DNA from: Candidatus Methylomirabilota bacterium
GTDB lineage: Bacteria; Methylomirabilota; Methylomirabilia; Rokubacteriales; CSP1-6
Direction of reading: 5' to 3'
Length of the DNA: 64,000 bases
Assembly (NCBI GenBank): GCA_046723845.1
Contig: JBKOVG010000065.1
Location: forward strand, 2-64,001
Below the pieces are notes generated by a model. The model ran no database searches and was not told the origin of the DNA. It saw only the letters and a program-made list of their open reading frames with translations. This document shows positions 18,689 to 35,183 of this stretch, in pieces. The position numbers and the translations under genes are program-made. Numbering within the stretch: the stretch's first letter is position 1; each line of letters opens with the position of its first letter.

Positions 18689-18720
18689 TTGCCGAAGCCT
18701 GCAACTTCATCGGCTTCACG

Positions 18721-18820: not shown

Positions 18821-18845
18821 CAGGTGAGACAGCCCGGGCGGCTCC

Positions 18846-18874
18846 TTGCCTTCTCCGCACCTGCCCGCTATAGT
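18846..18874 (+). promoter_or_regulatory. Sigma-70-like promoter TTGCCT-17-TATAGT pointing into the cassette array (Pc-like candidate)
   Basis: TTGCCT 18846-18851, exactly 17 nt, TATAGT 18869-18874; 142 nt upstream of the first cassette boundary. Confidence 0.35.
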
Positions 18875-19015
18875 CCCCGCACGTCCCCGCCAGAAGGAGG
18901 GGTGCCACTGGCCCTTGTCCGCTCGATCGCTTCGATTGTCTACGCGCCGGGATATTCATCCTCTTTCACGACAAGCGCCATCCCCTCCGGATGGGCGGGT
19001 TTCAAGATACTTATA

Positions 19016-19024
19016 GTTAGCGAG
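19016..19024 (+). other. Left-most cassette junction (GTTAGCGAG); core site of an attI or degenerate attC
   Basis: Exact reverse complement of CTCGCTAAC (20189-20197), the R'' end of the first attC. Confidence 0.6.
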
Positions 19025-19161
19025 CAGGACTGACGATCACGGCGACTGAACGAAGGTGGGACGTGGATCAAGATGGGCCAAACCGCAAATTCCGGTTTGT
19101 GTATCTTCCGCCCTCGTTTGAGCGGACAGGATGTCCTGTGCTGAGCCGTAGGGGAAAGGAC

Positions 19162-20130
19162 ATGCGGCGGCGCGATTTCATCAGGATTGTTGGGGGTGTG
19201 GCGGCGGTGTGGCCGCTCGTCGCGCGCGGGGAGCAAGCTCGGTTCGTTCGAATCGGCGCGCTCTACATAGGAATCGCGGACGCGGATTCGTTCAAGAAGG
19301 AACTCCGGGAAGGACTGCGCGAGCTCGGCTATGTGGAGGGGCAAAACATCGCATTCGAGTTCCGTTCCGCAGAAGGAAAGCTGGATCAACTTCCTCGGCT
19401 CGCCGCCGAGCTCGTCCGGCTGAAGGTCGACGTGATCGTGGCGCTCTACGTCCCCTGCGCGCTGGCCGCGAAACAAGCGACCCGCGAGATCCCCATCGTC
19501 ATTATCGCGGGTGACCCTGTCGAGACCGGGATCGTGCCCAGCCTGGCTCATCCAGGCGGAAACATCACCGGCGTGTCTCTGATGGCCTCCGCATTGGGTG
19601 GAAAGAGTGTCGAATTGTTCCGCGATATGCTGCCGTCCGCGCGGCGTGTGGGCGTCTTGGGCCACTCCACGAATCCGGTCTTCGCGAAAGCCATGCTCGA
19701 CGAGGTCCTGCGGGCCGGTGGACCGACCGGCATAAGAATACAGCCGGTCGTCATGATCCGCGGACCCGAAGAGGCCGACACCGCTTTTGCGACGATGGTG
19801 AGAGAGCGAGCCGATGCCGCCGTCGTCCAGGGCAGCTTGGCGTTCAAATCGCTGACCGATATGGCCATCAAGTACCGAGTGCCGACGGCCTCGACCACGC
19901 GCTCGTTTGCTGATATCGGAGGCCTGATGGCATTCGGGGCCGACGGGCCCGCCGCGGTTCGGCACGGCGCCACGTTCGTGCATCGGATCTTGGAGGGGAA
20001 GCAGCCGAAGGACATACCTATCGAGCAGCCCACCAAATTCGAGCTGGCCATCAATCTCAAGACTGCCAAGGCAATCGGCCTCAGAATTCCCCAAGCGTTT
20101 CTGCTGCGCGCCGACGCAATCCTCGAATGA
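19162..20130 (+). CDS. ABC-transporter substrate-binding protein (PF04392-like), cassette 1
   Basis: MRRRDFIRIVGGVAAVWPLVARG signal; ..GLRELGYVEGQNIAFEFRSAEGK..LKVDVIVA..IPIV..PGGNITG..EQPTKFELAINLKTAKAIGL.. Confidence 0.85.
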   Translation: MRRRDFIRIVGGVAAVWPLVARGEQARFVRIGALYIGIADADSFKKELREGLRELGYVEGQNIAFEFRSAEGKLDQLPRLAAELVRLKVDVIVALYVPCALAAKQATREIPIVIIAGDPVETGIVPSLAHPGGNITGVSLMASALGGKSVELFRDMLPSARRVGVLGHSTNPVFAKAMLDEVLRAGGPTGIRIQPVVMIRGPEEADTAFATMVRERADAAVVQGSLAFKSLTDMAIKYRVPTASTTRSFADIGGLMAFGADGPAAVRHGATFVHRILEGKQPKDIPIEQPTKFELAINLKTAKAIGLRIPQAFLLRADAILE

Positions 20131-20190
20131 AGCAGCAATTTGATGCGGACTAGCCAGCGCTGCTGAGTGCCGTGTGAGACCGTGGGCTCT

Positions 20191-20250
20191 CGCTAACAAG
20201 CCGCTGGACCCGACGGCTGAGGCAGCCGCGGGTCAGCGCCGGCGTTATGC
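20191..20250 (+). repeat. attC-1 (60 bp)
   Basis: cgctAAC aagccgctggacccg...cgggtcagcgccggc GTTatgc; arms pair (GACCCG/CGGGTC, GCCG/CGGC). Confidence 0.75.
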
Positions 20251-20329
20251 GCACTGAAGGTCGTCTGCCACGGTCGCCAAGCCAGCCAAGTTGGGCGGAC
20301 ACTGACCTCCGCAGGATAGTGGCCTCACA

Positions 20330-23300
20330 ATGAAATGTCCGCGGTGCGAGCACGAAAACGAGTCCAGCGCGAAGTTCTGTGAGGAGTGCGCCGCGCCGCT
20401 CGCGCGGATGTGTGCAAACTGCGGCCGGTCACTCTCCCCGAGGGCCAAGTTTTGCCCTGAGTGCGCCCATCCGACGAGATTGGGGCCGGAGGCTTCCACG
20501 ACCTCGCGCTTCACCTCCCCGGAGGGCTACACCCCGAGGCACCTCGCCGAGAAGATCCTTACGTCCAGGAATGCGGTCGAAGGCGAACGCAAGCAGGTCA
20601 CGGTGGTGTTCGCCGATCTCAAGGGTTCGATGGAGCTGCTCGCCGACCGAGACCCCGAAGATGCCCGCAACCTCCTCGACGCGGTGCTCGAACGCATGAT
20701 GGAGGCCGTCCACCGGTACGAAGGGACGGTCAACCAGGTCATGGGCGACGGAATCATGGCGCTCTTCGGCGCGCCGCTCGCCCACGAGGACCACGCGGTG
20801 CGGGCGTGCTACGCGGCCTTGCGCATGCAGGAATCGGTGAAGCGATACGCCGAGGAGGTGCACCGGACGGCGGGCGTGTCGCTGCACATCCGGGTCGGTG
20901 TGAACTCGGGCGAGGTGGTCGTCCGCTCCATCGGCAGCGACCTCCACATGGACTACACGGCCGTCGGCCAGACGACCCACCTGGCGGCACGGCTGGAGCA
21001 GATGGCGATGCCGGGTTCGATTCTCATCTCGCCCGCGACGCTCAATCTGTCGGAAGGCTACATCATGGTGACGCGACTGGGGGAGCGCCCAGTCAAGGGC
21101 CTGGAACGGCCGATGGAGGTCTTCGAGGTCGTCGGCGCCGGGACGGCGCGCTCGCGGCTGCAGGCCACCGCCGCTCGCGGTCTCACGCGGTTCGTCGGGC
21201 GCAGCGCGGAACTGGAGCAGCTCCGCCAGGCCCTGGAGCGGGCCGGGACGGGGCATGGCCAGGTCGTGGCAGTCGTCGGCGAGCCCGGGGTCGGGAAGTC
21301 CCGCCTCTTCTGGGAGTTCACCCACTCGCATCGCACGCAGGGCTGGCTCCTCGTCGAGAGCAGCTCCGTTTCTTACGGCAAGGCGATGGCGTTTCTGCCG
21401 CTCATCGATCTCCTCCGCGCCTACTTCCAGATCGAGGGTCGCGATGACGAGCGCAAGATCAGCGAGAAGGTAACTGGAAAGCTCTTCTCCTTGGACCGCG
21501 CGCTCGAACCGTCGCTGCCCGGACTGCTGTGGCTTCTCGACGTACCAGTCGACGACCCGCAATGGCAGCGGCTCGACCCTCCGCAGCGCCGCCAGCAAAC
21601 GCTCGAGGGGATCAAGCGATTGCTGCTACGAGAGAGCCAGGTCCAGCCGCTGTTGCTGGTGTTCGAGGACCTGCACTGGATCGACGCTGAGACTCATGCC
21701 CTGCTGGACAGCGTTGTGGAGAGTCTGCCCACCGCCCGGTTGCTGCTCCTGGTGAACTACCGACCGGAATACCAGCACAGCTGGGGCAATAAGACCTACT
21801 ACCGGCAGCTCCGCGTTGACCCCCTTGCGCCCGAGAGCGCCGAGGAACTACTCGGGGGCTTGCTTGGGACCGACGCTCGCCTTCAATCCCTCAAGCGACT
21901 CTTGATCGAGCGGACCGAGGGCAATCCGTTCTTCCTCGAGGAAAGCGTCCGGACGCTTGTCGAGACGAGGGTCCTGGCGGGCGCGCGAGGCGCCTATCAC
22001 CTGGCGAGAGAAACCTCGACGCTGCAAATTCCGGCGACGGCCCAGGCGATCCTGGCTGCGCGCATCGACCGTCTCGCGCCCGAGGACAAACGGCTCCTCC
22101 AGGCCGCCTCTGTCATCGGCAAGGACACGCCCTTCACGCTCCTCCAGGCCATCGCGGAGGAGCCAGAGCAGCAACTCCGCCGGGGCCTCGCGAATCTCCA
22201 AGCCGCCGAGCTCCTCTACGAGGCGCGGCTCTTCCCGGACCTCGAGTACACATTCAAGCACGCGCTGACCCACGACGTCGCCTACGGCAGCCTGCTTCAG
22301 GAGCGACGGCGCGCGCTCCACCGCCAGATCATGGAGACCATCGAGCGGCTCCATCCCGACCGGCTGGCGGAGCACATCGAACAGCTCGCCCACCACGCCT
22401 TCCGGGGCGAGGCGTGGGACAATGCTGTCACGTACCTCCGGCAGGCTGGGGCCAAGGCCTTCGCCCGCTCGGCCAACCGGGAATCGGTGACGTATCTCGA
22501 GCAGGCCCTCAACGCCCTGGATCACCTGCCACAAGATGGCGAGACGGTCGTCCAGGCCATCGATGTTCGGATCGATCTGCGTCATGCGCTGTGGCCGCTC
22601 GGCGAGAACGGTCGGATCCTCAACTATTTGCAGAAGGCCGAAACCATGGCCGAGACGCTCGGCGACCAGGGGCGATTGGCGCGGGTTCTCTCGGCGATGG
22701 GCTATTCATTTTGGATGCTGGGCGACCATGGCCGTGTCGCGACGTCCAACGGGCGTGCCCTGGCGATCGCCACGAGCCTGGGAGACTTCGCTCTCGAGGC
22801 GGCGGCAAACTTCGCGCTCGGGCTCGCTTACCACGGCCTCGGAGACTATCGTCGCGCGACCGACCACCTCACGAGAAACGTCGGCTCGCTCCGAGGCGAG
22901 CGGATGTTCGGTCGGTTCGGAACCGCCGGCGTCACGTCGGTCCTGTCCATCATGGCGCTGGCATGGTGCAATGCCGAGCAGGGCTCTTTCGCGGAAGGCA
23001 TCGGCTTCGGGGAGGAAGCCCTTCGGACCGCCAACGCGCGAGATGACAAGCTCAGTCTCATGTTCGCCGACCTAGGTGTCGGAGACCTCTACCTCGTGCA
23101 GGGGGACCTCGTCCGGGCCATTCCGAGACTCGAGCGTGGCCTGTCGATCTGCCAGACATGGGACTTCCCATCCTGGCTTCCCTGGCTGGCTTCGCGACTG
23201 GGGGCCGCTTACGCCTTGGCCGGTCGTGTGGCCGAGGGCCTGCCGTTGTTGGAGCAGTCGGTGGAGCGAGCCGACGCCATGGGTTGGAAGGCCGACGCTT

Positions 23301-23701
23301 CACGGCTCGCCGCCAGGTTGAGCGAGGCATATCTCGGAGCTGGTCGAATTCAGGAAGCGGCAGAACTGGCCGCCCGTGCCCTCGATCTCGCGGTGGGGCA
23401 GAACGGGCGCGGTGATCAGGCCTGGGCCCTACGCCTGGGTGGCGAGATCGCTTCCGGTAGGGAGCCGGCCGACCTCGAGCAGGCCGAAGACCAGTACCGC
23501 CAAGCGCTCGCCCTCGCCGAGGAGTTGGGGATGCAGCCCCTCGCGGCGCACTGTCACCTTGGGGTCGGCAAGCTGTATCGCCGCGTGGGCAACCGCGCGA
23601 AGGCGGAAGAGCGCCTGAGGACCGTCACCGCGATGTATCGGGAGATGGAGATGGGCTTCTGGATCCAGCACGCCGAGGCAGAGATGAGGGCGCTGGGATG
23701 A
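20330..23701 (+). CDS. Double zinc-ribbon / class III adenylate cyclase / AAA(STAND) ATPase / TPR protein, cassette 2
   Basis: CPRCEHEN..CEEC..CANCG..CPEC; VTVVFADLKGSMEL..VMGDGIMALFGAP; VVAVVGEPGVGKSRL (P-loop); C-terminal TPR-like repeats; 1123 aa. Confidence 0.85.
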   Translation: MKCPRCEHENESSAKFCEECAAPLARMCANCGRSLSPRAKFCPECAHPTRLGPEASTTSRFTSPEGYTPRHLAEKILTSRNAVEGERKQVTVVFADLKGSMELLADRDPEDARNLLDAVLERMMEAVHRYEGTVNQVMGDGIMALFGAPLAHEDHAVRACYAALRMQESVKRYAEEVHRTAGVSLHIRVGVNSGEVVVRSIGSDLHMDYTAVGQTTHLAARLEQMAMPGSILISPATLNLSEGYIMVTRLGERPVKGLERPMEVFEVVGAGTARSRLQATAARGLTRFVGRSAELEQLRQALERAGTGHGQVVAVVGEPGVGKSRLFWEFTHSHRTQGWLLVESSSVSYGKAMAFLPLIDLLRAYFQIEGRDDERKISEKVTGKLFSLDRALEPSLPGLLWLLDVPVDDPQWQRLDPPQRRQQTLEGIKRLLLRESQVQPLLLVFEDLHWIDAETHALLDSVVESLPTARLLLLVNYRPEYQHSWGNKTYYRQLRVDPLAPESAEELLGGLLGTDARLQSLKRLLIERTEGNPFFLEESVRTLVETRVLAGARGAYHLARETSTLQIPATAQAILAARIDRLAPEDKRLLQAASVIGKDTPFTLLQAIAEEPEQQLRRGLANLQAAELLYEARLFPDLEYTFKHALTHDVAYGSLLQERRRALHRQIMETIERLHPDRLAEHIEQLAHHAFRGEAWDNAVTYLRQAGAKAFARSANRESVTYLEQALNALDHLPQDGETVVQAIDVRIDLRHALWPLGENGRILNYLQKAETMAETLGDQGRLARVLSAMGYSFWMLGDHGRVATSNGRALAIATSLGDFALEAAANFALGLAYHGLGDYRRATDHLTRNVGSLRGERMFGRFGTAGVTSVLSIMALAWCNAEQGSFAEGIGFGEEALRTANARDDKLSLMFADLGVGDLYLVQGDLVRAIPRLERGLSICQTWDFPSWLPWLASRLGAAYALAGRVAEGLPLLEQSVERADAMGWKADASRLAARLSEAYLGAGRIQEAAELAARALDLAVGQNGRGDQAWALRLGGEIASGREPADLEQAEDQYRQALALAEELGMQPLAAHCHLGVGKLYRRVGNRAKAEERLRTVTAMYREMEMGFWIQHAEAEMRALG

Positions 23702-23727
23702 CCGACGCGTCGCGAGAGAGCCGGGGC

Positions 23728-23799
23728 GCATAACAGCACGATGAACCTGACAGCGACTTCGCTTCGCTCAGCCGCCGCAGGTTATCGTGAGCGTTCGGC
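23728..23799 (+). repeat. attC-2 (72 bp)
   Basis: gcatAAC agcacgatgaacctg...caggttatcgtgagc GTTcggc. GCGCATAAC (23726-23734) is the exact reverse complement of GTTATGCGC (20244-20252). Confidence 0.8.
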
Positions 23800-23840
23800 G
23801 GACACTCTAGTCATGAGAGCAGGTCAGAGGATAGGCGCAG

Positions 23841-24083
23841 ATGTTCGACGCGGTGATTCAGACCGTACTCTCCCAAGGCCAGCCAAGCTCCGGCGATAAC
23901 CTGCTCGGGTTCTCGATCGATGCCGACCACTATGTGGCCGAGGGTGGCGCGCTGGTGAACGTGGACGTCCGCCGCAGCGACCGACCGGACTGCTTAATCG
24001 ATGTACGTGCGACAGTCGCCGATCACGTTCAAACCCTGCAGGATGTTGCTTTAGCGTTGCGGGGAGCATGGGTGGAATGGTGA
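23841..24083 (+). CDS. Hypothetical 80-aa ORF (cassette 3)
   Basis: ORF only; no recognisable motif; abuts the NMO fragment. Confidence 0.3.
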   Translation: MFDAVIQTVLSQGQPSSGDNLLGFSIDADHYVAEGGALVNVDVRRSDRPDCLIDVRATVADHVQTLQDVALALRGAWVEW

Positions 24084-24640
24084 TTACTCCCGCCGTTGTC
24101 GATGCTGTGCGTGCGGTCGCCCCAGGCTCGTCAGCGCCACCGGTGGTCGCGGCAGGTGGAATAGCAGACGGCCGGGGCCTCGCGGCCGCACTGATGCTCG
24201 GCGCAGAAGGTGTTCTCGTCGGCACGCCGTTCCTCGCGACCGACGAGGCACCGGTACCCTCGGCGTGGAAGTCGGCGATTTGCGCGTCGACCGAGGTTGA
24301 TACGGTCTATACGCGGGTTGCGAATCTTGTGGCGCGGCCGACTTGGGCGCCGGTCGCGCCGAGTCGCGTGCTGCGGACCGGCGCGGTTACGGCCTGGCTT
24401 GGTCGCGAGGCGGAACTCGACGCGCTCCCGCCAGCCGAGCGCGAGACGATCGCCGCGCGTTGGGTGCAGGCGCGGATGGAGGGACGCACGGACGACATGG
24501 AAGTGATTGCGGGGCAGGACTGCGGGCTGATCCACGAGATCTTTCCGGCTGCGGAGGTGGTGAGAAGGATCGTGGAGGAGGCGGAGCAAGTCCTCGGGCG
24601 GTGGTGCCCCGCCGGCCACAACGGACCGCGAAGTGCGTGA
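24068..24640 (+). pseudogene. Nitronate monooxygenase (NMO/2-nitropropane dioxygenase) C-terminal fragment
   Basis: PVVAAGGIADGRGLAAALMLGAEGVLVGTPFLATDE is the C-terminal half of the FMN TIM barrel. The N-terminal ~150 aa are absent. Confidence 0.65.
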
Positions 24641-24744
24641 CCGCGTCTGCCAGATCGCCCGCTGGATTCGACCGCCTGATCTGCCCCGCAGGACAGGAAC
24701 CAGCGGTCGTCGATCCAGGGCGTCTGGGCGGTCGTCATGAAAGC

Positions 24745-24816
24745 GCCGAACAAGGCAGTCGAGCGGCCGGCGGCTCGCATTCGCTCGGGCGCCGCCGCTC
24801 ACTGCCAGCGTTCGTC
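24745..24816 (+). repeat. attC-3 (72 bp)
   Basis: gccgAAC aaggcagtcgagcgg...ccgctcactgccagc GTTcgtc. Shares 16-nt loop ggctcgcattcgctcg with attC-11. Confidence 0.8.
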
Positions 24817-24909
24817 GCACCAGGAGACGGCAAGCAGATACCGCAGTCGATGCTACGAAGTCCCAAGCACATTTACACCAAAAGGCTAGAAGAGAGAGCG
24901 AGGCTTCCT

Positions 24910-26117
24910 ATGACCATCGGTGCGCTGATCCAAGGCCAATGCGACTCACGTTTCACAGCAGTGCGTGAGGCGTTCGCGGAGAATTTCGCAAAACGCGCAG
25001 AAGTGGGTGCCGCAGTCTCCGTTTATGTGAACGGCAAACCAGTCGTGGACCTCTGGGGCGGCTACGCCAACGCTGCCAGGACTCGGCCCTGGGAGCAGAA
25101 CACGCTTGTGAGTGTTGCGTCTACCACCAAGGGCATGGTCGCTCTTTGCGCTCACATGCTCGTCGAGCGCGGACTCCTCGATCTCGATGCGCCAGTGGCT
25201 CGCTACTGGCCAGAATTCTCGCAGGCCGACAAGGCGCAGATCCCCGTGCGCTGGCTTCTGAGCCATCGGGCTGGTTTACCAGCCATCCGACGAGATCTGC
25301 CCGCCGAGTCGCTCTACGACTGGCATGCCTTCACCGCGGCACTAGCGGAAACCTCTCCCTGGTGGACGCCGGGAAGCCAGCACGGCTATCACGCGAGGAC
25401 TTTCGGCCACCTGGTGGGTGAAGTCATTCGGCGGATCAGCGGCGCGAGCGTGGGCCAGTTCCTTCGCGCCGAAGTGGCGGGGCCGCTGGGTGCCGACTGC
25501 TTTATTGGCCTTCCGGAGGCAGAACATGCGCGGGCTGCCGAAATCCTTCCCGACCTACCACCTCTCCCTGGCGACGAGACTATATGGGACGTGATCAGGG
25601 GAGACCCATCGTCCATGGCGGCCCGCGCGTTTTCCAATCCACCAGGCGGCCCAGAGATGAGGAATACTCGAGCCTGGCGCGCGGCCGAGATTCCATCAAG
25701 CAACGGCCACACGACCGCAAGAGCCCTGGCCCGCCTCTATGGTGCGCTCGCTGATGGCGGGACGCTCGACACCGTGCACCTCCTCGACCCAGCCACGATC
25801 GATGCGGCGATCGTAGAACAATCGTCTGGCCTCGATGCGATTCTCCCGTTCGCGACGCGGTTTGGACTCGGGTTCATGCTGACGATGCCGGGCAGGAACG
25901 GACAGCCGGGGCACTCGTCCCGCCGTTCGGTCCCAATCCGCGCGCCTTCGGGCACCCGGGGGCCGGGGGCTCTATCGGCTTTGCCGACTTGGACGGCCGA
26001 CTTGGTTTTGGCTACGTGATGAACCAGTTTCAGACTGGCACGGCACGGAATCCCGATCTCCGTTGGGTCTCCCTCGTCGAGGCAGCCTATGCCTCGCTCG
26101 GCGCAAGACAGGGTTAA
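24910..26117 (+). pseudogene. Serine hydrolase (class C beta-lactamase/esterase family) with a frameshift near 25890-25925, cassette 4
   Basis: SVASTTKGM (S-x-x-K). After ..GLGFMLTMPG the conserved C-terminus PFGPNPRAFGHPGAGGSIGFADLDGRLGFGYVMNQ..* continues in another frame, ending at TAA 26115-26117. Confidence 0.7.
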
Positions 26118-26153
26118 TTCGTTTTGTCATCAAAATCCCGCATCGTGGCGGGC

Positions 26154-26226
26154 GTCGAACTTCGCGCTCCAGCGGACCAGGAGCTCGCGTTGCTCGCTCC
26201 CCGGCCGCTGAGCGTGAACGTTCGGC
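26154..26226 (+). repeat. attC-4 (73 bp)
   Basis: gtcgAAC ttcgcgctccagcgg...ccgctgagcgtgaac GTTcggc. Confidence 0.75.
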
Positions 26227-26256
26227 GGACAAGTTGAGCCAAGGCAGGAGCGAGCG

Positions 26257-27081: not shown

Positions 27082-27117
27082 CGTGTTCATCCTCCATAAC
27101 CCCGAGCTTGGCGAGCC

Positions 27118-27175
27118 GCCGAACAACAGGCTCGAGCGGACCAACTATGCCGGCCGCTCAGCCTGAGCGTTCGGC
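27118..27175 (+). repeat. attC-5 (58 bp)
   Basis: gccgAAC aacaggctcgagcgg accaactatgccgg ccgctcagcctgagc GTTcggc. Confidence 0.8.
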
Positions 27176-27197
27176 GCACCGGGGAAGCGATCAACAG

Positions 27198-28244
27198 TTG
27201 ACTTGCCGAAATCGTTGGCGTCGCGCCCGAAAATCGGCCACGTCGAGAGTCGACGTCTCCGTCCTCATTTTCTTGTTTCTATTCGTTGCTTCAGGCCTCG
27301 TTTCCATTGTCCTCATAGGTGCGCCAGCTCGTGCGCAGGAGCACCCGACGGGAAAGGTCTACCGGATTGGGTTCCTACGCGCGGGGCAGCCGCCCGAGAC
27401 CTACCTCGACGGCTTTCGCCAAGGCCTACGCGAGCGGGGATATGTCTATGGCCAAAATGTGGTCGTGGAATTCCGAGCCACCGACGGCAGCGTCGATCAG
27501 CTTCCGCAGTTCGCCGAAGAGCTGGTGCGCTTGAAGGTCGACGTCATCCTGGCTTCGGCCGCGTCAGCGGCTCAGGCAGCCGGCAGAGTGACCACGTCGG
27601 TGCCAATCGTCTTTGTGGGCGTCGTGGACCCGGTCGGGCTCGGGCTCGTCCCGAGCCTGGGACACCCGGGTGGCAACATCACGGGACTAACCACTACCTC
27701 TGAGGATTTCGCCGGCAAGCGCCTGGAGCTGCTCAGGGCACTCGTCCCCAACCTCAAGCGAGTTGGAGTTCTCTGGCATCCGGCCAACCCGACCAACCCC
27801 ATCCAACTCAAGGGGGCGCAGGTCGCAGCGCGCACGCTCGGCGTGCGGCTTGAGCCGGTGTCGGTCCAGGGGCCGAATGATTTTGACTCTGTCGGCAAGA
27901 CTGTGCGTGGTACCGATGGCCTGCTCTTTCTGGAGAGTCCACTTTTCACGACACATCGCGCTCGCCTCGCAGAGTTGGCGGCCAAAAGCCGGCTGCCCGC
28001 GATCTATGGCCAAAGGGAGTACGTTGAGGTCGGAGGCCTCATGTCATATGGCACGCACTTTCACGACTTGTACAGACGTGCAGCTCTCTACGTGGACAAG
28101 ATCCTGAAGGGCGCGAAGGCGGCTGATCTCCCCGTCGAGCAACCCACGAAGTTCGAGTTCGTGATCAACTTGAAAACCGCCAGGGCTCTCAGTCTGGCGA
28201 TCCCGCAATCGCTCCTGCTGCGCGCCGATCAGGTGATCGAATGA
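27198..28244 (+). CDS. ABC-transporter substrate-binding protein (PF04392-like), cassette 6 (start uncertain; TTG 27198 is the first start inside the cassette)
   Basis: ..GFRQGLRERGYVYGQNVVVEFRATDGS..LKVDVILA..VPIVF..HPGGNITG..EQPTKFEFVINLKTARALSL..ADQVIE*. The ORF-track 5' extension crosses attC-5. Confidence 0.8.
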   Translation: MTCRNRWRRARKSATSRVDVSVLIFLFLFVASGLVSIVLIGAPARAQEHPTGKVYRIGFLRAGQPPETYLDGFRQGLRERGYVYGQNVVVEFRATDGSVDQLPQFAEELVRLKVDVILASAASAAQAAGRVTTSVPIVFVGVVDPVGLGLVPSLGHPGGNITGLTTTSEDFAGKRLELLRALVPNLKRVGVLWHPANPTNPIQLKGAQVAARTLGVRLEPVSVQGPNDFDSVGKTVRGTDGLLFLESPLFTTHRARLAELAAKSRLPAIYGQREYVEVGGLMSYGTHFHDLYRRAALYVDKILKGAKAADLPVEQPTKFEFVINLKTARALSLAIPQSLLLRADQVIE

Positions 28245-28332
28245 TCGCTCGGCCGGCTTTGGTTCTCCTGCCGAGTGGCCTTCTCAGCGTCTTCGTGGCA
28301 GGTGACGGCGCAGCTTGCCAAGCGATGGGGGC

Positions 28333-28395
28333 GTCGAACGTTTCAGTGGAGCGGACCCGCCCAGAGCGGCGGGCCGCTCACCATGAGCGTTGGGC
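28333..28395 (+). repeat. attC-6 (63 bp)
   Basis: gtcgAAC gtttcagtggagcgg acccgcccagagcggcggg ccgctcaccatgagc GTTgggc. Confidence 0.8.
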
Positions 28396-28475
28396 GCACC
28401 TGATCGCCTGACATGCTGGCGACTCCAGAGGCGAGGAGGTCCACGGCTTATGGGCAACACTACGGTGGTGGCGGC

Positions 28476-29468
28476 GTGATGATCATCCACGTTGCGACGG
28501 CGGTCGCGCTCGCCCTCGGCCTCGCTGCCGCGCCGACGCTCGCCGACGCGCAGCCGACGAAGAGCCATCGACTGTGTGTTCTGGGGGCTGACTCCAGCTT
28601 GTCGCAGTGGGGGGCAACGCGGTACAACGCGTTTCTCGAGGGCCTCAAGGACTTCGGTTACGTGGAGGGACGCAACATCGTCATCGATTTCCTGTCCGCT
28701 GACGGGGACTATCAAAGATTTCCCACCCTTGCCGCCGAGTGCGTGCGCCTCAAGCCGGACATCATCATCGCGTATACCACGCCCGGCAGCCTGGCCGCCA
28801 AGAAGGCAACCAGCACCATCCCGATCGTCATGGGGCCAGTAGGGGATGCGGTCGGTACCGGAATCGTGGCCAGCTTGGCGCGCCCCGGCGGAAACATCAC
28901 GGGCCAGACCCTCATCGCGTCGGGGCTCAGTGTCAAACGCTTGCAGCTGCTGAAGCAAGCGGTACCCGCGCTCTCCCGGGTTGCTGTCCTGTCACATGCG
29001 ACAGACCCGGTTGGAGCGGTCCAGGTACAGGAGATGGAACAAGCGGCGGGCCAGCTGGGACTGCGCCTGCTGATCCATCGCATTCGGGCCCCGGATGACC
29101 TTCCCGGCGCGGTCAACGCCGCCGCTAAAGACGGTGCGGAAGGACTTATCACGACGATCGAGACCATCTTCCTTATTAACCGCGCCCGTGTGATCGACCT
29201 CGCGGCGAGGCAGCGGTTACCGGCAATGTATCCGTCGCGAGACTTCGCGGATTCCGGAGGCTTGCTGAGTTATGGTCCGAGAATGTCGAGCCTCTACCGC
29301 CAAGCGGCGGTCTACGTGGACAAGATCTTCAAGGGCGCCAAGCCTGCTGACTTGCCGATCCAACAGCCGACCGAGTTCGAGCTGGTCATCAATCTGAACA
29401 CCGCGAAGACTCTTGGCCTGACGATCCCGCAATCGCTGTTGCTGCGGGTGGACCAAGTCATTGAGTGA
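28476..29468 (+). CDS. ABC-transporter substrate-binding protein (PF04392-like), cassette 7
   Basis: Signal VMIIHVATAVALALGLAAAPTLADA; ..GLKDFGYVEGRNIVIDFLSADGD..IPIVMG..RPGGNITG..QQPTEFELVINLNTAKTLGL..VDQVIE*. Confidence 0.8.
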   Translation: MMIIHVATAVALALGLAAAPTLADAQPTKSHRLCVLGADSSLSQWGATRYNAFLEGLKDFGYVEGRNIVIDFLSADGDYQRFPTLAAECVRLKPDIIIAYTTPGSLAAKKATSTIPIVMGPVGDAVGTGIVASLARPGGNITGQTLIASGLSVKRLQLLKQAVPALSRVAVLSHATDPVGAVQVQEMEQAAGQLGLRLLIHRIRAPDDLPGAVNAAAKDGAEGLITTIETIFLINRARVIDLAARQRLPAMYPSRDFADSGGLLSYGPRMSSLYRQAAVYVDKIFKGAKPADLPIQQPTEFELVINLNTAKTLGLTIPQSLLLRVDQVIE

Positions 29469-29477
29469 TCGCTGGCC

Positions 29478-29549
29478 GCCCAACATCACGCTGCAACGGT
29501 CCGGGTGCTCACGATGCTCGCACCCGGCCGCTGAGCGTGCGCGTTCGGC
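29478..29549 (+). repeat. attC-7 (72 bp)
   Basis: gcccAAC atcacgctgcaacggtccgggtg...cacccggccgctgagcgtgcgc GTTcggc. Confidence 0.8.
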
Positions 29550-29588
29550 GCCTTGAGCCGAGCGGACGATCGGGAGTAAGGTAAGGCA

Positions 29589-29801
29589 ATGGCTGAGGCG
29601 ATCGTAACCTGCTCGCCGGATATCCTGAGCGGCACGCCCGTATTCGCTGGAACGCGAGTTCCGGTCCAAGCGCTCATCGACTACCTCGAGGGCGGCGAGA
29701 CGATCGGCGACTTCCTCACGGGGTTTCCGACCGTCAGGCGGGAGCAGGTCGTGGCCTTCCTCGAGGAGGCCACGGCGCGAATGACTCCCAAGGCGTCGTG
29801 A
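29589..29801 (+). CDS. DUF433-family antitoxin-like protein, cassette 8
   Basis: CSPDILSGTPVFAGTRVPVQALIDYLEGGETIGDFLTGFPTV; GTGA start/stop overlap with the next gene. Confidence 0.8.
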   Translation: MAEAIVTCSPDILSGTPVFAGTRVPVQALIDYLEGGETIGDFLTGFPTVRREQVVAFLEEATARMTPKAS

Positions 29802-30130
29802 GGGTGCTCCTCGACGAGTGTGTCGACCGGCGCCTCGCGGCGGACATCCAAGGGCACGACGTGAAGACGGTGCCAGACGCGGGCTGGGCTGCGCTGAAGA
29901 ACGGGGACCTCCTGAACCGAGCCCAGCACGAGTTCGACGCGTTCGTCACGACCGACCGCAACCTTCCCTTCCAGCAGGACCTGTCCCGCTTCTCCATCGC
30001 CGTCGTCGTGCTGCGCGCACAATCCAATCGTGTTGTCGATCTGCGCCGCCTGATTCCCCAGCTGCTCACCGCCCTGCCTGTCGCCAAGCGTGGCGCGGCC
30101 ACATGGGTAGGCGCCGAACAACGCACTTGA
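29798..30130 (+). CDS. DUF5615-family PIN-like toxin candidate, cassette 8
   Basis: MRVLLDECVDRRLA..GHDV..FVTTDRNL..; 4-nt overlap with the DUF433 gene; its 3' end runs into attC-8. Confidence 0.75.
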   Translation: MRVLLDECVDRRLAADIQGHDVKTVPDAGWAALKNGDLLNRAQHEFDAFVTTDRNLPFQQDLSRFSIAVVVLRAQSNRVVDLRRLIPQLLTALPVAKRGAATWVGAEQRT

Positions 30131-30170
30131 GCGGACACGCTTCGCGCGCCGCTCACCGCGGGCGTTGGAC
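30113..30170 (+). repeat. attC-8 (58 bp)
   Basis: gccgAAC aacgcacttgagcgg acacgcttcgcgcg ccgctcaccgcgggc GTTggac. AGGCGCCGAAC is the exact reverse complement of GTTCGGCGCCT at attC-7 (11 nt). Confidence 0.85.
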
Positions 30171-30285
30171 GGACAAGAGAACACGCACCTGGCTCTCGGG
30201 TTTCGTTTTGCGGGCCGAGGTGTCCAGTGTAAGGCTCAACCGTATTCCACGAGAGGCGGCTCTGGCAACCTGAGAGGAGGACGAC

Positions 30286-30573
30286 ATGGCGTACGGGGTT
30301 GTGCATCACTTTCCAGGCGGGACGAGGGAACAGTACGAGGCATCAATCGCAGCGGTGCACCCCAGCAGAGACAGCCTTCCGAAGGGACAGATCTTCCACG
30401 CGGCTGGCGCGTCGCCTGGTGGCTGGACGATCGTGGCAGTCCACGAGTCCAAGGAGAGTTGGGAGCGGTTCCGCGACGGCATCCTGATGCCTCAGCTGCA
30501 ACAGGGCGTCAAAGGCGGCTTCACCACGCCACCGCAGGAGACCGTCTTCGAGGTCCATAACCTGCAGCGGTAA
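30286..30573 (+). CDS. Hypothetical 95-aa protein, cassette 9
   Basis: GAGAGGAGG SD; MAYGVVHHFPGGTREQYEASIAAVHP..; small alpha/beta-like, no firm family call. Confidence 0.55.
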   Translation: MAYGVVHHFPGGTREQYEASIAAVHPSRDSLPKGQIFHAAGASPGGWTIVAVHESKESWERFRDGILMPQLQQGVKGGFTTPPQETVFEVHNLQR

Positions 30574-30730
30574 GAGGCTGCGAAGCGTTCGCGGCTCTCG
30601 TTCGGAGCGGCGGCCCCAGCGGGCGGGAGGACGGGTTCGGGTATGCCTCAGTGCTCGTGATGGGTTCGAGTGCGGCCTCTTGCGTGGCTTCGGCGCGTGC
30701 GAGCCGGGTGTGGTGTTCGTTCCACGAGCC

Positions 30731-30827
30731 GTCCAACCGCGCGCTGCACCCGACGGCCCGCGCTCGGGTGCTCTGCTGGGCTTAGGTTAGAATCTGCGCG
30801 GGCCGTGGCTGAGCGCGAGCGTTAGGC
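30731..30827 (+). repeat. attC-9 (97 bp)
   Basis: gtccAAC cgcgcgctgcacccgacggcccgcg...cgcgggccgtggctgagcgcgagc GTTaggc. CCGTCCAAC is the exact reverse complement of GTTGGACGG at attC-8. Confidence 0.75.
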
Positions 30828-30842
30828 GTACAGGGGATTTTT

Positions 30843-31847
30843 ATGACCGCAGAGGCTCCGGATTGGAGCGATGTTACCAGCTACTTTATCAGCTACTTCT
30901 CTGCAGTCGCGATCCTGGCCGCTATGCAACTCGATCTCTTCACGCCGCTTCGGCATGGCCCACGGACGTGTGACGAACTTGCCACGGATCTGCGAGTTGA
31001 TCCCCGTCGCCTGCGAATGCTGCTGGTTCCTCTGGCCAGTACTAAGCTCATCACCCTAAACGAGGGCCGCGTGGCGAACTCCGCGCTCGCGGCCGAATTC
31101 CTCGTCCGGGGGCAGCCACGATACATGGGCGGAAGTCACGAACTCTACTCGGATCTGTTCGCCTCCGTACTCCCCACTGCGCAGTCCATCCGAGCTGGCA
31201 CACCACAAGCTGAACATGACTGGGACAGTCTTCCCGACGAGCAGCTACGAGCAGTGCTGCGCGGGTTGAATGCTGGCGCCACAGCTCAAGGGCAATTGAT
31301 CGCCCGGGATCATGACTTTTCACGGTTTGAGACGATTCTCGACATCGGTGGCGGCGGTGCCGGCTTCGCCATGGGCGCCTGTCAGGTCTGTCCGAACCTC
31401 ACGGCGCAGGTGATCGAACTGCCGAGAGTCGCTCGGATCGCGCAGGAGCTTATCGATGCGGCGGGGCTGGCTTCTCGCATCCGAGCCGTTAGCCATAACA
31501 TTGCCGCTGCGCCGCTGCCGGCTCCTCAGCCCGCTGCGGTGGTACGCAACCTCCTCCAGGTGTTATCGCCCGAACGCGCTCAGCGCGTTCTCGAGAACGT
31601 TGGCCGTTCCCTTCGACCGGGTGGAGAGATATTCGTTATCGGCCAGATACTTGACGACGATCTCGCTGGTCCGCCGAGCGCGATAGCGTTCAATCTTGTG
31701 TTCCTCAATATTTACAGGGATGGCGAAGCGCATTCGGAATCCGCTTACCGACGGTGGCTTGAGGTTGCAGGCTTCGTGGACGTCCAGAGGATGCCACTCG
31801 TTGGTAGCTCGGGCATGAGCCTGATGACGGGACACTGGCCCGGATGA
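30843..31847 (+). CDS. O-methyltransferase (Methyltransf_2 type with N-terminal dimerisation/wHTH domain), cassette 10
   Basis: ILDIGGGGAGFAMGACQVCPNLTAQVIELPRV..; 334 aa. Confidence 0.8.
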   Translation: MTAEAPDWSDVTSYFISYFSAVAILAAMQLDLFTPLRHGPRTCDELATDLRVDPRRLRMLLVPLASTKLITLNEGRVANSALAAEFLVRGQPRYMGGSHELYSDLFASVLPTAQSIRAGTPQAEHDWDSLPDEQLRAVLRGLNAGATAQGQLIARDHDFSRFETILDIGGGGAGFAMGACQVCPNLTAQVIELPRVARIAQELIDAAGLASRIRAVSHNIAAAPLPAPQPAAVVRNLLQVLSPERAQRVLENVGRSLRPGGEIFVIGQILDDDLAGPPSAIAFNLVFLNIYRDGEAHSESAYRRWLEVAGFVDVQRMPLVGSSGMSLMTGHWPG

Positions 31848-31884
31848 AGGTTGTCTCGCCAGCTGCTTCGAGGAAATCTGCGCC

Positions 31885-31944
31885 GTCCAACTTCAGGCTT
31901 GAGCGGCCCGGCGCCACGCCGGCCGCTCAGCCCAAGCGTTGGGC
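31885..31944 (+). repeat. attC-10 (60 bp)
   Basis: gtccAAC ttcaggcttgagcgg cccggcgccacgccgg ccgctcagcccaagc GTTgggc. Confidence 0.8.
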
Positions 31945-32007
31945 AGACGGATGCCTGTGGCAATCACGTGCCGCCGGTGTGACGGGCATGGGGGAAGAGG
32001 GACAGAC

Positions 32008-32703
32008 GTGAAGCTCGCGGCCAGCCGCGTCACCGCAGCGGCAGTTCTTCTCCTGCTTGCCGCGTCACTCGCCGCGGCTGCCGACCAGCCCCGAGAGAAA
32101 GTGACACGGGTAGGCTATCTGTCGCCTGGTTCGCCTTCCGACCCGGTGAGGTTGCGCCGATTCGAAGCGTTCCGCCAAGGTCTGCGCGAGCTCGGTTATG
32201 TGGAAGGCCAGAACGTCGCTATCGAATCCCGATGGGCCGAGGGCAACTATGATCGGTACCCTGCCCTCGCGGCCGACCTGGTCCGTGAGAAAATGAACGT
32301 CATCGTGGCGGTGGGCGGGGCAGCGACCCAGGCGGCCCAACGAGCGACCAGGACAATCCCGATCGTCATGTCGGTCGTTCTCGATCCCGTGGGAAGCGGA
32401 CTCGTCGCCAGCCTTGCGCGTCCCGAAGGGAACATCACAGGGCTGTCGCTCATGGCCCCTGACATCATCGGGAAACAGTTACAAGTGCTCAGGGAAGTGG
32501 TGCCGTCGGTATCTCGGGTGGCCGTCCTCTGGAATCCGGCCAATCCGGGGAGCGCGCCCCAGTTGCGAGAGGTGGAGGCTACAGGTCGGGTCTTGAAGAT
32601 GCACCTTCAAATTCTTCAGGCGCGGGCCCCCCAGGAGATCGATAGCGCCTTCGCGGCGATGACGCGAGAGCGGGCGGGCGCGGTAGTGATTCTTGCGAAG
32701 TGA
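32008..32703 (+). pseudogene. ABC-transporter substrate-binding protein (PF04392-like), 3'-truncated (~75 C-terminal aa missing), cassette 11
   Basis: ..GLRELGYVEGQNVAIESRWAEGN..IPIVM..RPEGNITG.. Stops at ..AGAVVILAK* without the conserved ..GGLMSYG..EQPTKFEL..VIE tail. Confidence 0.65.
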
Positions 32704-32742
32704 GCGTGGTTATCGCCACTCCATTCCCCGATCGGCACATCC

Positions 32743-32813
32743 GCCGAACAATGGACTGGAGCGGACGCTGGCTCGCATTCGCTCGCCACGGCCGCTCACT
32801 GCGAGCGTTCGCC
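32743..32813 (+). repeat. attC-11 (71 bp)
   Basis: gccgAAC aatggactggagcgg...ccgctcactgcgagc GTTcgcc; near-twin of attC-3. Confidence 0.8.
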
Positions 32814-32852
32814 GACAGACGCAGCTGAACAGATTCAATTGGAGGTGACTGG

Positions 32853-33836
32853 ATGACGCTGAAGTGTCTCGGTGTGCTCCTCGCTTTGAGCATTCTCGGG
32901 CCGCTGCTGACCGCCGAGGCTCAGGTGACGGCAACGACAGCGAAGATCGGAGTGCTCTCCTCTCAATCCCACGAAACGAGCAAAGCGGCCTGGACCGCAT
33001 TCCGTCAGGGACTCCGCGACTTCGGCTGGGAAGATGGACGAAACATCGTCATCGAGGTTCGATTTGCTGACGGTCATATCGACCGACTCCGCGGTTTGGC
33101 TGAGGAGTTGCTGAAACACGACGTAAGGCTCATCGTCGCCCAGAACTCGCCAGGAGCCCGCGCAGCCATCGACGCGACGAGGACCGTGCCGATCGTGATG
33201 GTCGAGGTCGGTGATCCCGTCGCCACCGGATTCGTGACGAACCTGGCCCGGCCGGGCGGGAACGTCACGGGCCTGACGAACATGGCGCGCGATTTGACTT
33301 CGAAGCGACTCCAACTGCTCAAGGAAGCCGTGCCGAGCGCCACACGCATTGCCGTGATCATGGACCCAGGCGATCCGGTCGTCCCACCGCAGTGGCGTGA
33401 CGCCCAGTCCGCGGCACAGAGGCTTGGTCTTGAGCTCCAGCGGCTGGAGGTGCGGAATGTCGATGATCTCCGGCGGGCATTCCAGACGGCAGTCGCCGGC
33501 AAAGCTGAGGCCGTGCTGCGACTAGCCGACCCGCTGTCCATAGTGCAAGGAACGGAGACCGCGCAACTGGCCATAAAGCATCATCTGCCACTCATGGTCA
33601 GGGCTCGCACGGAGATCGAAATGGGTGGGTTGATCTCGTATTATGCGGACCCTCTCGACTACCACCGTCGGGCCGCATTCTACGTCGATCGAATTCTCAA
33701 AGGCGCCAAGCCGGGCGATCTGCCGATCGAGCAACCCACACGATTCGAGCTGCTCATAAACCTAAAGACCGCGCACGCGCTTGGGATCACGATCCCACCG
33801 TCGCTGGTGATACGAGCAGATGAGGTGTTCCAATGA
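32853..33836 (+). CDS. ABC-transporter substrate-binding protein (PF04392-like), cassette 12
   Basis: Signal MTLKCLGVLLALSILGPLLTAEA; ..GLRDFGWEDGRNIVIEVRFADGH..VPIVM..RPGGNVTG..EQPTRFELLINLKTAHALGI.. Confidence 0.85.
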   Translation: MTLKCLGVLLALSILGPLLTAEAQVTATTAKIGVLSSQSHETSKAAWTAFRQGLRDFGWEDGRNIVIEVRFADGHIDRLRGLAEELLKHDVRLIVAQNSPGARAAIDATRTVPIVMVEVGDPVATGFVTNLARPGGNVTGLTNMARDLTSKRLQLLKEAVPSATRIAVIMDPGDPVVPPQWRDAQSAAQRLGLELQRLEVRNVDDLRRAFQTAVAGKAEAVLRLADPLSIVQGTETAQLAIKHHLPLMVRARTEIEMGGLISYYADPLDYHRRAAFYVDRILKGAKPGDLPIEQPTRFELLINLKTAHALGITIPPSLVIRADEVFQ

Positions 33837-33892
33837 CGATCATAGCGGCTCCTATGCGAAAGATCGGCATGGAAAACCCCGCCGAGTATCTC

Positions 33893-33977
33893 CGGCAACT
33901 TTTCCGCGCCGAGCGACCGCGATCTCTTGCGCATCGCTGAGTGGATTCGATGAACGCGAGCCGAGCGAACGTTCGGG
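33893..33977 (+). repeat. attC-12 (85 bp, degenerate; arms pair poorly)
   Basis: cggcAAC ttttccgcgccgagcg...cgcgagccgagcgaac GTTcggg; central hairpin GCGAT/ATCGC. Assigned mainly by position and the conserved gagcgaacGTTcgg end. Confidence 0.4.
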
Positions 33978-34531
33978 ACAGCTTGCTGGAGGCCGCCTTA
34001 TGGTTCGTGCAAGCGGCTGCTCAGCTATCAGGGGTTCAGTGCATCGCGTTGATCGGCTCGATCCTCAGCAACCGCCAAAGCCCGAAAGACGTCGACCTAC
34101 TGGTGTACGTTGCCGACGATGCCGATCTGGCACCGCTGGCGTCCACGGCGCGCCGGCTGCAAGGGCGCCTCCAGAGCCACAACCGCGGTGCCGACGTATT
34201 CTTGGCAGACGAGCAACGCCAATACTTGGGTCGGACGTGTTCCTGGAAGTTGTGCCAGCCCGGGATTCGCGCCTCATGTGATGCACTACACTGCGGCCGG
34301 CGGCCGCATCTTCATGACGACCTTGCCACGATTCGACTCCCTGACTCGCTCATCGCGGCACCGCCCCTCGAGCTCTGGCCCATAGTCGTGCGGAGGTGCC
34401 AGGTACCTGCCGATGTCGAGAGGCTCGTGAGCCGTCTTCACGAACAGCACAACAACGCAGTCGCGCAGACCGCTGGCTCGCGTTCGCCCGCCGCGGCTGC
34501 TCACCGCGAGCGTTGGTCGGCACTGCAGTAG
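33941..34531 (+). CDS. Pol-beta-superfamily nucleotidyltransferase with Cys4 cluster, cassette 13 (start probably TTG 33983, inside the cassette)
   Basis: IALIGSILSNRQSPKDVDLLVYV (GS..D.D NTase motif); C-x4-C-x7-C-x4-C (CSWKLCQPGIRASCDALHC). The last ~30 codons are translation of attC-13. Confidence 0.6.
   Translation: MDSMNASRANVRDSLLEAALWFVQAAAQLSGVQCIALIGSILSNRQSPKDVDLLVYVADDADLAPLASTARRLQGRLQSHNRGADVFLADEQRQYLGRTCSWKLCQPGIRASCDALHCGRRPHLHDDLATIRLPDSLIAAPPLELWPIVVRRCQVPADVERLVSRLHEQHNNAVAQTAGSRSPAAAAHRERWSALQ
34439..34518 (+). repeat. attC-13 (72-80 bp; R'' either 34439-34445 or 34447-34453)
   Basis: cacgAAC agcacaacaacgcagtcgcgcagaccgc...gcggctgctcaccgcgagc GTTggtc. Confidence 0.65.
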
Positions 34532-34556
34532 TTGAGGTGACGGCCGGGAGGGGACT

Positions 34557-34993
34557 GTGTCGCTAACGATGACCAAGCAGGAACGCGAAACGTTTCTGGC
34601 CGAGCTTCACGTCGGAATCATCAGTATTCCTGAAAAAGGGCGAGGACCGCTCACCGTGCCGATCTGGTACTCGTACGAACCTGGCGGCGAGCTACGGGTC
34701 GTAACCGCCAGGACTTCGCGGAAAGCTCAGCTCCTCCAGCATGCTGGCAGGTTCAGTCTCTGTGTACAGACGGAGACATGGCCGTATAAGTACGTCAGTG
34801 TCGAGGGACCGGTCGTCGCCATCGAGCCAGCAGATGTTGAGCGCGACCGCCGGCCTCTCGCTCCCGTTACTTGGGCGTGCCAAGGGGTGACCGATACATC
34901 GAGAAGACACGGGGAGAACCGGGCCACGTTACGAACCTGCTTGTTCGCATGCTGCCGAGACGATGGCTCACGGTGAACTACGCGAAGGCATAG
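34557..34993 (+). pseudogene. Pyridoxamine 5'-phosphate oxidase (PPOX/F420-binding) family protein with a frameshift near 34850-34870, cassette 14
   Basis: ..LHVGIISIPEKGRGPLTVPIWY..RVVTARTSRKAQLL.. The conserved tail ..RYLGVPRGDRYIEKTRGEPGHVTNLLVRMLPRRWLTVNYAKA* continues in another frame (TAG 34991-34993). Confidence 0.65.
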
Positions 34994-35011
34994 GGACCGC
35001 CATGACCGTCC

Positions 35012-35081
35012 GTCCAACAAGCCGCTTCAACAGCCCAGGGTTCGCGCCGCCCACCTCAGCTGCTGAGCGCCGGCGTTGCGG
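35012..35081 (+). repeat. attC-14 (70 bp), last site of the array
   Basis: gtccAAC aagccgcttcaacagc...gctgctgagcgccggc GTTgcgg; ends 7 nt before direct repeat copy B. Confidence 0.75.
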
Positions 35082-35088
35082 TGAGAAC

Positions 35089-35183
35089 GGCGTGCCGACC
35101 TACGACGAGGAAGTTTCACGGGTCGACGCGGCAAAGATCCGCAGGTAGTTGCCGCCCAGGATCTTGGCGGTCTCCGCCGGCGT
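35089..35183. repeat. Direct repeat copy B (3' end plus 11 nt downstream of the intact dipeptidase gene)
   Basis: ~90 % identical to 18721-18816 (hand alignment). Confidence 0.85.

Follow-up and report, generated by a model that had tools for sequence, protein, structure and literature searches.

Genes and palindromes between 19.0 and 35.1 kb

The window analysed here is a stretch of 64,000 nucleotides (nt) of contig JBKOVG010000065.1 from a Candidatus Methylomirabilota bacterium, and its subject is a series of genes and imperfect palindromes that resembles an integron cassette array. A first-pass annotation had described an integron-type array of 14 cassettes, in which every gene between 19.0 and 35.1 kb is on the + strand and every intergenic gap holds one co-oriented palindrome of 58–97 nt. 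The strand claim holds for every open reading frame (ORF) with Pfam support, all within 19063–34976. Reading the gaps between ORFs, together with a simple scan, located 14 imperfect palindromes of 58–97 nt on the + strand: 20191–20250, 23728–23799, 24745–24816, 26154–26226, 27118–27175, 28333–28395, 29478–29549, 30113–30170, 30731–30827, 31885–31944, 32743–32813, 33893–33977, 34447–34518, and 35012–35081. A generic inverted-repeat finder overlooked most of these hairpins because of their bulges. The description of one palindrome per gap needs two amendments: those starting at 23728, 30113, and 34447 overlap the ends of mechanically called ORFs instead of standing in clean gaps, and that at 33893–33977 is decayed (discussed below).

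Read as gene cassettes, each unit would pair an attC recombination site with the single promoterless gene, or single toxin-antitoxin pair, that precedes it. Bit scores in this inventory, in which all features are on the + strand, are those of R2, a covariance model built from 124 sites outside the window; a second model, R1, was built from the 14 window hairpins. Cassette 1 (19017–20250) encodes an ATP-binding cassette (ABC) substrate-binding protein of family PF04392 (ORF 19063/19160–20130, Pfam 2.8e-40) and has its attC at 20191–20250 (44.6 bits). Cassette 2 (20245–23799) is 3.5 kb long: its 1123-residue product (20330–23701) matches Pfam double zinc ribbon, adenylate/guanylate cyclase, AAA_16, and TPR domains, and its attC lies at 23728–23799 (62.3 bits). 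In cassette 3 (23794–24816; attC 24745–24816, 70.9 bits) the nitronate monooxygenase gene (24068–24640) is truncated, covering only positions 182–331 of the PF03060 profile. A PF00144 hydrolase of the beta-lactamase/esterase family (approximately 24880–26019, Pfam 1.5e-66) makes up cassette 4 (24811–26226; attC 26154–26226, 72.6 bits), and cassette 5 (26221–27175; attC 27118–27175, 64.0 bits) encodes a class I S-adenosylmethionine (SAM) methyltransferase (26257–27081, Pfam). Cassettes 6 (27170–28395; attC 28333–28395) and 7 (28390–29549; attC 29478–29549, 64.6 bits) each encode a further PF04392 substrate-binding protein, at approximately 27300–28244 (Pfam 5.4e-51) and at 28413–29468 (Pfam 4e-44), respectively.

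Cassette 8 (29544–30170; attC 30113–30170) holds a putative toxin-antitoxin pair, DUF433 (29589–29801) and DUF5615 (29798–30130) by Pfam, whose genes overlap by 4 nt with no attC between them according to R1 or R2; a homologous pair is present at L013 (loci from other genomes are numbered L001 and upward). A 95-residue protein without a Pfam match (30286–30573) is encoded by cassette 9 (30165–30827), which ends in a long attC (30731–30827, 36.6 bits), and an O-methyltransferase (30843–31847, PF00891 2e-18) by cassette 10 (30822–31944; attC 31885–31944, 62.1 bits). Cassette 11 (31939–32813; attC 32743–32813, 65.9 bits) retains a truncated PF04392 protein (31939–32703, profile positions 11–190 of 293). 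Cassette 12 (32808–33977) encodes another PF04392 substrate-binding protein (32853–33836, Pfam 2.4e-48) and is followed by the decayed attC-like remnant at 33893–33977. The ORF of cassette 13 (33972–34518; ORF 33941/33950–34531) is DUF6932-like (nucleotidyltransferase-like), with a weak Pfam match (6.7e-5) that is under the curated cut-off; its attC (34447–34518, 57.4 bits) overlaps the called 3' end. Cassette 14 (34513–35081; attC 35012–35081, 50.7 bits) carries a frameshifted PNPOx-like gene (34557–34976, weak Pfam match). PF04392 proteins are found in five of the 14 cassettes (1, 6, 7, 11, and 12) with a mutual identity of only 40–51%, and the array includes no partner permease or ATPase genes for them.

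The palindromes as attC sites

When aligned with MAFFT (alignment A1), all 14 palindromes read xxxxAAC ... GTTxxxx: the AAC triplet at positions 5–7 and the GTT triplet near the 3' end are invariant (14/14), as the first-pass annotation had stated. The fourth base after GTT is often a C, a deviation from the strict R' consensus GTTRRRY (the R'' consensus is RYYYAAC). Inner arms such as GAGCGG...CCGCTC, previously ascribed to most of the hairpins, are exact in only six of the 14, and the remaining eight have compensated variants.

The full R''/R' plus L''/L' structure is paired in 85.3% of cells, compared with 29–36% when the partners are slid, and the covariation score of 0.312 was matched by none of 500 shuffles. 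The R helix is 80.6% paired, with the outer 4 nt of the hairpins partly complementary. The L helix is 88.6% paired, with double-sided compensatory changes at 6 of its 10 pairs (RNAalifold); in this inner stem RNAalifold also places a one-base bulge in the 5' arm (L''). Where an attC would have an unpaired central spacer between the R and L boxes, minimum-free-energy folds open only a small internal loop, with 2 nt on one side and 1 nt on the other, and the spacer columns, 5 and 6 nt long, are largely complementary in these hairpins. Length variation is confined to the central region, and the observed 58–97 nt fall within the attC range of approximately 57–141 nt. A strict pattern written for the commonest hairpin subtype has five matches, compared with none in 100 shuffles.

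Predicted folds of the bottom DNA strand place single-base bulges nearly all on the 3' (R''–L'') arm, approximately 16 and 23 nt from the 3' end, with bulges on the 5' arm being rare; the extrahelical-type bases proposed in the first-pass annotation are borne out by these predictions. At 27118–27175, for example, the bottom-strand fold has z = -5.6, and all of its bulges are on the 3' arm. Such asymmetry reportedly lets integron integrases choose both strand and orientation. The sequence at 33893–33977 gives no fold (z = +1.8) and is not recovered by R2, reaching 30.7 bits only with R1, which it helped to train. It resembles an attC site of which the 3' half remains and the 5' half has degraded, and we therefore count 13 solid attC sites and one decayed site in the array.

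The two covariance models served as a proxy for the attC model of IntegronFinder. R1, run with filters off, found only the 14 sites on the + strand of the 64-kb window (30.7–74.7 bits, a result that is circular for its own members), and their reverse strands scored at most 25.4 bits. R2 recovered 13 of the 14 at identical coordinates (36.6–72.6 bits, E ≤ 4e-7) and nothing else. Neither model found further copies on either strand of the 48 kb of flanking chromosome. The best off-array match of both models, at 5983–6034 (+; 20.6 bits with R1 and 18.6 with R2, E approximately 0.01–0.02), is isolated, lies far under every array member, and is most likely due to chance. When R1 was run on three clinical class 1 integrons (39 kb, obtained with IntI1 as the probe), its eight best matches were all at attC positions established by experiment, on the cassette strand and directly 3' of genes; these genes include blaVIM-2 (51 bits, E 4e-10), aac(6')-Il, aac(3)-Ia, aac(6')-Ib, arr-3, and qacG2. 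The IntI1 query proved 100% identical to the database protein. A search of Rfam at gathering thresholds gave no match to the window hairpins, a null result that is uninformative since, to our knowledge, Rfam holds no attC family.

Scanning the subtype pattern over 185,579 species-representative genomes produced 56 loci, about half of them in Rokubacteria/Methylomirabilota metagenome-assembled genomes (MAGs) and the rest in groups including Acidobacteria, Armatimonadota, Eisenbacteria, Verrucomicrobiota, and Synechococcus. R1 detects 154 sites in these loci at E < 1e-3, spaced approximately 0.5–1.5 kb apart, and in every multi-hit locus (at least 30 of the 56) all of its sites are on one strand.

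GC-rich palindromes that lie between genes and follow them are also characteristic of repetitive extragenic palindromes (REPs) and of terminators, so that the hairpins could be a generic intergenic repeat (REP-like, or like a bacterial interspersed mosaic element [BIME]) that merely resembles attC. Such repeats would not be expected to keep a strictly single orientation while being missing from both strands of the flanks, and the gap sequences lack a T-run after the hairpins. The same model, moreover, finds bona fide class 1 attC sites, the arrays adjoin integron integrases in other genomes, and homology between cassette copies breaks at the G/TT point of the R' box (both discussed below). The REP/BIME and terminator readings were rejected, as both are contradicted already within the window, and we consider an origin of this kind extremely improbable. 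The first-pass assignment of the palindromes to attC, as opposed to a dispersed REP/BIME family, is thus upheld; its remark that the array is hidden from gene callers is true in a relative sense, since IntegronFinder is designed to flag such arrays.

Integrase remnant, insertion site, and status of the array

A tblastn search of the 64-kb window with IntI1 detected no intI gene. A remnant of the 5' part of such a gene lies at 18955–19011 (+), translated as FILFHDKRHPLRMGGFQDT, and is the sole IntI similarity in the window. This remnant is approximately 57 nt long, corresponds to IntI residues 47–65, and is co-directional with the cassettes. It is identical to the L001 IntI at 12 of 19 residues (tblastn, 901-nt target, E 1e-4), and its DNA matches the L001 intI (81% over 43 nt, blastn, E 0.002) as well as the L024 intI (alignment A3). 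Among the 56 loci, intI adjoins the arrays in five (tblastn with IntI1). Two of these, L001 and L024, encode full-length proteins scoring 459 and 457 bits on TIGR02249 ("integron integrase"), for which the cut-off is 265; L009, L026, and L045 have intI fragments beside their arrays. Judged by these matches, the integrase gene of the window appears to have been deleted down to a stub. Upstream of the stub is an island leader (18817–18954, no strand assigned) that contains a sigma-70-like TTGCCT-17-TATAGT at 18846–18874 (+); the consensus scan of the leader gave one match where 0.3 were expected. In a comparison of 18690–19070 with all fetched loci, the intI piece was the sole match, with no attI or leader homologue.

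IntegronFinder defines a cluster of attC sites lacking integron integrases (CALIN) as two or more same-strand attC sites, each separated from the next by less than 4 kb, with intI absent from the 4 kb around them (PMC4889954). The window has 13–14 sites on the + strand, a widest spacing of approximately 3.5 kb (between the site ends at 20250 and 23799), and no intI. A complete integron has a functional intI next to the array, together with an attI site and a Pc promoter; no functional intI is present here. A sedentary chromosomal integron is one that occurs in all genomes of a species or has more than 19 attC sites (Cury 2016, PMC4889954); the window array has 13–14, and its locus is found in relatives L057 and L064 and is absent from L058, L059, L063, and L065, a comparison made on metagenomic contigs that lack defined species limits. 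As only a stub of intI is left, the array is classed as a CALIN, or degraded chromosomal integron, and not as a complete integron. We put at about 0.93 the probability that this region is the cassette array of a chromosomal integron whose integrase has been lost. The earlier description of a 14-cassette integron-type array is accordingly kept for the cassette array and its 13 solid attC sites, and is qualified by the one decayed site and by the lack of a functional intI.

In such an array, the bottom strand of each attC folds into a hairpin whose R''/R' (AAC/GTT) and L''/L' stems carry bulges on a single arm. The IntI of a working integron recognises this asymmetric hairpin, cuts between G and TT, and excises or inserts cassettes as circles. 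The adjacent intI, oriented like the cassettes as in related MAG integrons, is here reduced to the stub of approximately 57 nt, so that the array could be rearranged only by IntI supplied in trans. IntI would have been active at the array in the past. Cassette expression may occur through read-through from an upstream promoter, and the toxin-antitoxin cassette may stabilise the array.

Several observations weigh against this reading. The mean attC identity within the array is only 62%; sedentary integrons of the classic kind, the Vibrio superintegron among them, have a higher within-array identity. The sites used to train R2 were picked by R1, and the two models are therefore not fully independent. 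The intI remnant is only 19 residues long, and its E-values are significant in small search spaces only. No attI was recognised in the window. Lastly, the left boundary of cassette 1 appears uncertain and the start of the array is not defined: the first-pass annotation began it at the GTT at 19016, a placement that is not sustained, as the homology of cassette 1 to its other copies starts near 19078.

The array is situated in an island (18817–35183; 16,367 bp) with a GC content of 0.641, compared with 0.699 in the flanks; local GC drops from approximately 0.70 to 0.61–0.67 exactly across 19–35 kb. The island sits in the 3' end of an M19 dipeptidase gene (35100–36227, -; Pfam Peptidase_M19 4.2e-46) and is flanked by a 96-nt imperfect direct repeat in which 86 of 96 positions are identical (alignment A2). 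The left copy (18721–18816, -), with an attL-like junction at 18816/18817, is the dipeptidase gene's native 3' end, now displaced, and the right copy (35089–35183, -) is an island-borne replacement for it. Since the left copy runs colinear with the native context of relatives with an empty site (with the DUF4286 gene in L063 and L065), the M19 gene now ends in the replacement. Four relatives (L058, L059, L063, and L065; 84–87% nt identity) have the empty site, with the M19 gene abutting DUF4286 or abhydrolase genes, and two have the array (L057 at 93–96% and L064 at 86% nt identity). These close relatives are all soil metagenome contigs; the nearest named homologues of the flanking genes are from MAGs labelled Candidatus Binatia (86%), Methylomirabilota (73%), and Rokuibacteriota (69%).

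The M19 gene has received a 16.4-kb island in its 3' end, and with it a replacement gene end; site-specific integration and Campbell-type recombination of a circle are candidate routes for an insertion of this type. The repeat of the target 3' end (native end displaced to the left, replacement on the right), the clean empty sites in four relatives, and a GC content below that of the flanks would also fit an integrative genomic island of another site-specific recombinase that targets the dipeptidase 3' end and carries the array as cargo. However, the island and its surroundings contain no recombinase gene but the intI stub, and the array itself fills nearly all of the island (19.0–35.1 of 18.8–35.2 kb). 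We regard the involvement of another recombinase as doubtful; it complements the integron reading rather than excluding it.

Two further features of the flanks were observed. The DUF4286/EthD-like gene at 18080–18688 is present in L063 and L065 and absent in L058 and L059, and this is a separate indel among the relatives at the same junction. At 42200–42900 there is a sharp dip in GC to 0.61, coinciding with a 144-residue ORF (42398–42832). This ORF is probably native, and not another insertion, because L066 and L067 have a 143-residue DUF6941 gene at the matching position after acyl-CoA dehydrogenase genes.

Cassette exchange, decay, and comparison with known integrons

Cassette 6 (27170–28389) is 83.5% identical at the nt level to L013 2593–3807, where the neighbouring genes differ: the homology begins at the G/TT of the upstream R' and ends at the G/TT of the cassette's own attC. 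Copies of cassette 1 with an attC are found in L068–L070 (91% nt identity), and here too homology ends at the R' GTT. A counterpart of cassette 2, 36% identical, lies between two attC sites in L007 (2798–6226), cassette 9 has a copy (84% nt) in the L064 array, and cassette 13 has a copy (96% nt) in L057. Judged by the breaks in homology of cassettes 6 and 1 and by the different cassette order in L064 (described below), the cassettes appear to be discrete mobile units. Recombination by an integrase at G/TT is suggested indirectly by the breaks in cassette homology at this point and by the presence of the same family beside the TIGR02249 integrases of L001 and L024. A shorter protein with the architecture of the cassette 2 product is encoded by an ordinary chromosomal gene in relatives L066 (2835–5192) and L067.

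The L064 array is at the same chromosomal site and has another order, in which an AHSA1 gene and the cassette 9 homologue come after cassette 14. The cassette 14 gene is intact there, ending in ...WLTVDYAKA*. At L064 3700–4300 (-), no attC is detectable between the cassette 9 homologue, the AHSA1 gene, and cassette 14, and the expected GTT is mutated (CGCTGGTCGGC compared with GCGTTGGTCGGC). The missing attC and the mutated GTT suggest that the array is decaying independently in the L064 lineage. In the window, the array is otherwise decaying as well, with one attC lost and three genes (those of cassettes 3, 11, and 14) truncated or frameshifted. The loss of attC here and in L064, together with the intI stub, indicates that the array is no longer maintained by recombination.

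A differing cassette order at one locus, along with 13 attC sites that are still intact, could instead mean that the array is part of a functional integron, shuffled in trans by an intact intI elsewhere in the genome (after a rearrangement, or in a second integron). About half of all CALINs are in replicons that encode IntI (Cury et al., PMC4889954). On the other hand, the 64 kb contain no intI and the adjacent copy is a stub, and the signs of decay just described, in the window and between the cassettes of L064, weigh against this reading; we think it unlikely that the array is still served in this way.

An array that has lost its integrase agrees with published CALINs (PMC4889954) in its co-oriented attC sites less than 4 kb apart, in having no intI within 4 kb, and in its cassettes of mostly non-resistance or unknown function; loss of intI, one of the origins proposed for CALINs in that survey, is plausible here. 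It differs in being larger, with 13–14 sites, whereas CALINs have a mean of approximately 5–6 and only 6.6% exceed 10 (Cury et al. 2016, PMC4889954), and in keeping a tiny but recognisable 5' remnant of intI. The intI pseudogene screen of the same survey (PMC4889954) targets the C-terminal domain. It would therefore miss a 5' remnant such as this one.

Sedentary chromosomal integrons with an inactivated intI have reportedly been found in Xanthomonas, among others. As in those integrons, the window has a chromosomal array at a fixed locus beside a housekeeping-type gene, common to related lineages with differing cassettes, and its integrase is degraded and its cassettes are decaying. The host, in contrast, is an uncultured soil bacterium of high GC content, intI and the cassettes share one direction, and the locus is absent from several close relatives and is thus not fixed in the clade. 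"Inverted" integrons, in which intI is oriented as the cassettes are, are said to occur in Treponema denticola and others. The window remnant and all five loci with an adjacent intI have this layout, with intI upstream of and co-directional with the cassettes (L001 3–1013, L024 5814–6824, and likewise L009, L026, and L045). The related IntI proteins are approximately 52–54% identical to IntI1, though IntI1's own layout is divergent; the likeness to inverted integrons rests on gene layout, and the intI gene of the window, unlike theirs, is destroyed. Class 1 mobile integrons share the attC architecture, and their attC sites are detected by the window-derived model. The window differs from them in having neither resistance cassettes of the clinical pool nor a Tn402, sul1, or qacE context, and in its co-directional intI, as intI1 is divergent from its cassettes.

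The cassette 1 gene (19122–20130) also occurs without an attC, at 85% nt identity, in L071 (9963–10969) and L072 (1909–2915); an attC-bearing copy is at L068 2522–3687. In L071 and L072 it is an ordinary operon gene between a luciferase-like gene and an overlapping acetyltransferase gene, and its homology to cassette 1 is limited to the ORF plus approximately 38 nt upstream. The copies with an attC (L068–L070) and those without (L071 and L072) could be the before and after of cassette formation or of domestication. Furthermore, the duplicated 96-nt gene end, with its native copy displaced, would fit an arrival of the integron in this lineage as a self-contained integrative island, one that inserts at the M19 3' end and repairs it. 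If true, an entire integron would have moved without a transposon or plasmid. We judge it rather improbable that the locus goes beyond an ordinary CALIN in these respects, whether by mobility of the whole integron or as a snapshot of the genesis or domestication of cassette 1.

The array is an ordinary example of a known element and overturns nothing in current understanding; it was recognisable from raw sequence by attC architecture alone. Its content is unusual in the over-representation of PF04392 genes as cassettes and in the 3.5-kb cassette for a large signalling ATPase (cassette 2). PF04392 genes are also present in the arrays of 11 of the 56 related loci (including L006, L013, L014, L016, L031, L032, L046, L050, L054, and L055), a recurrence which suggests that integrons here serve as libraries of modules for substrate binding. 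With its occupied and empty sites, decayed attC, and intI stub, the locus offers a clean natural series for the acquisition and death of an integron. A full-text literature search returned no description of integrons in Rokubacteria/Methylomirabilota, though broad surveys across phyla exist; the arrays reported here document integrons in uncultured high-GC soil lineages and extend the known hosts of these elements.

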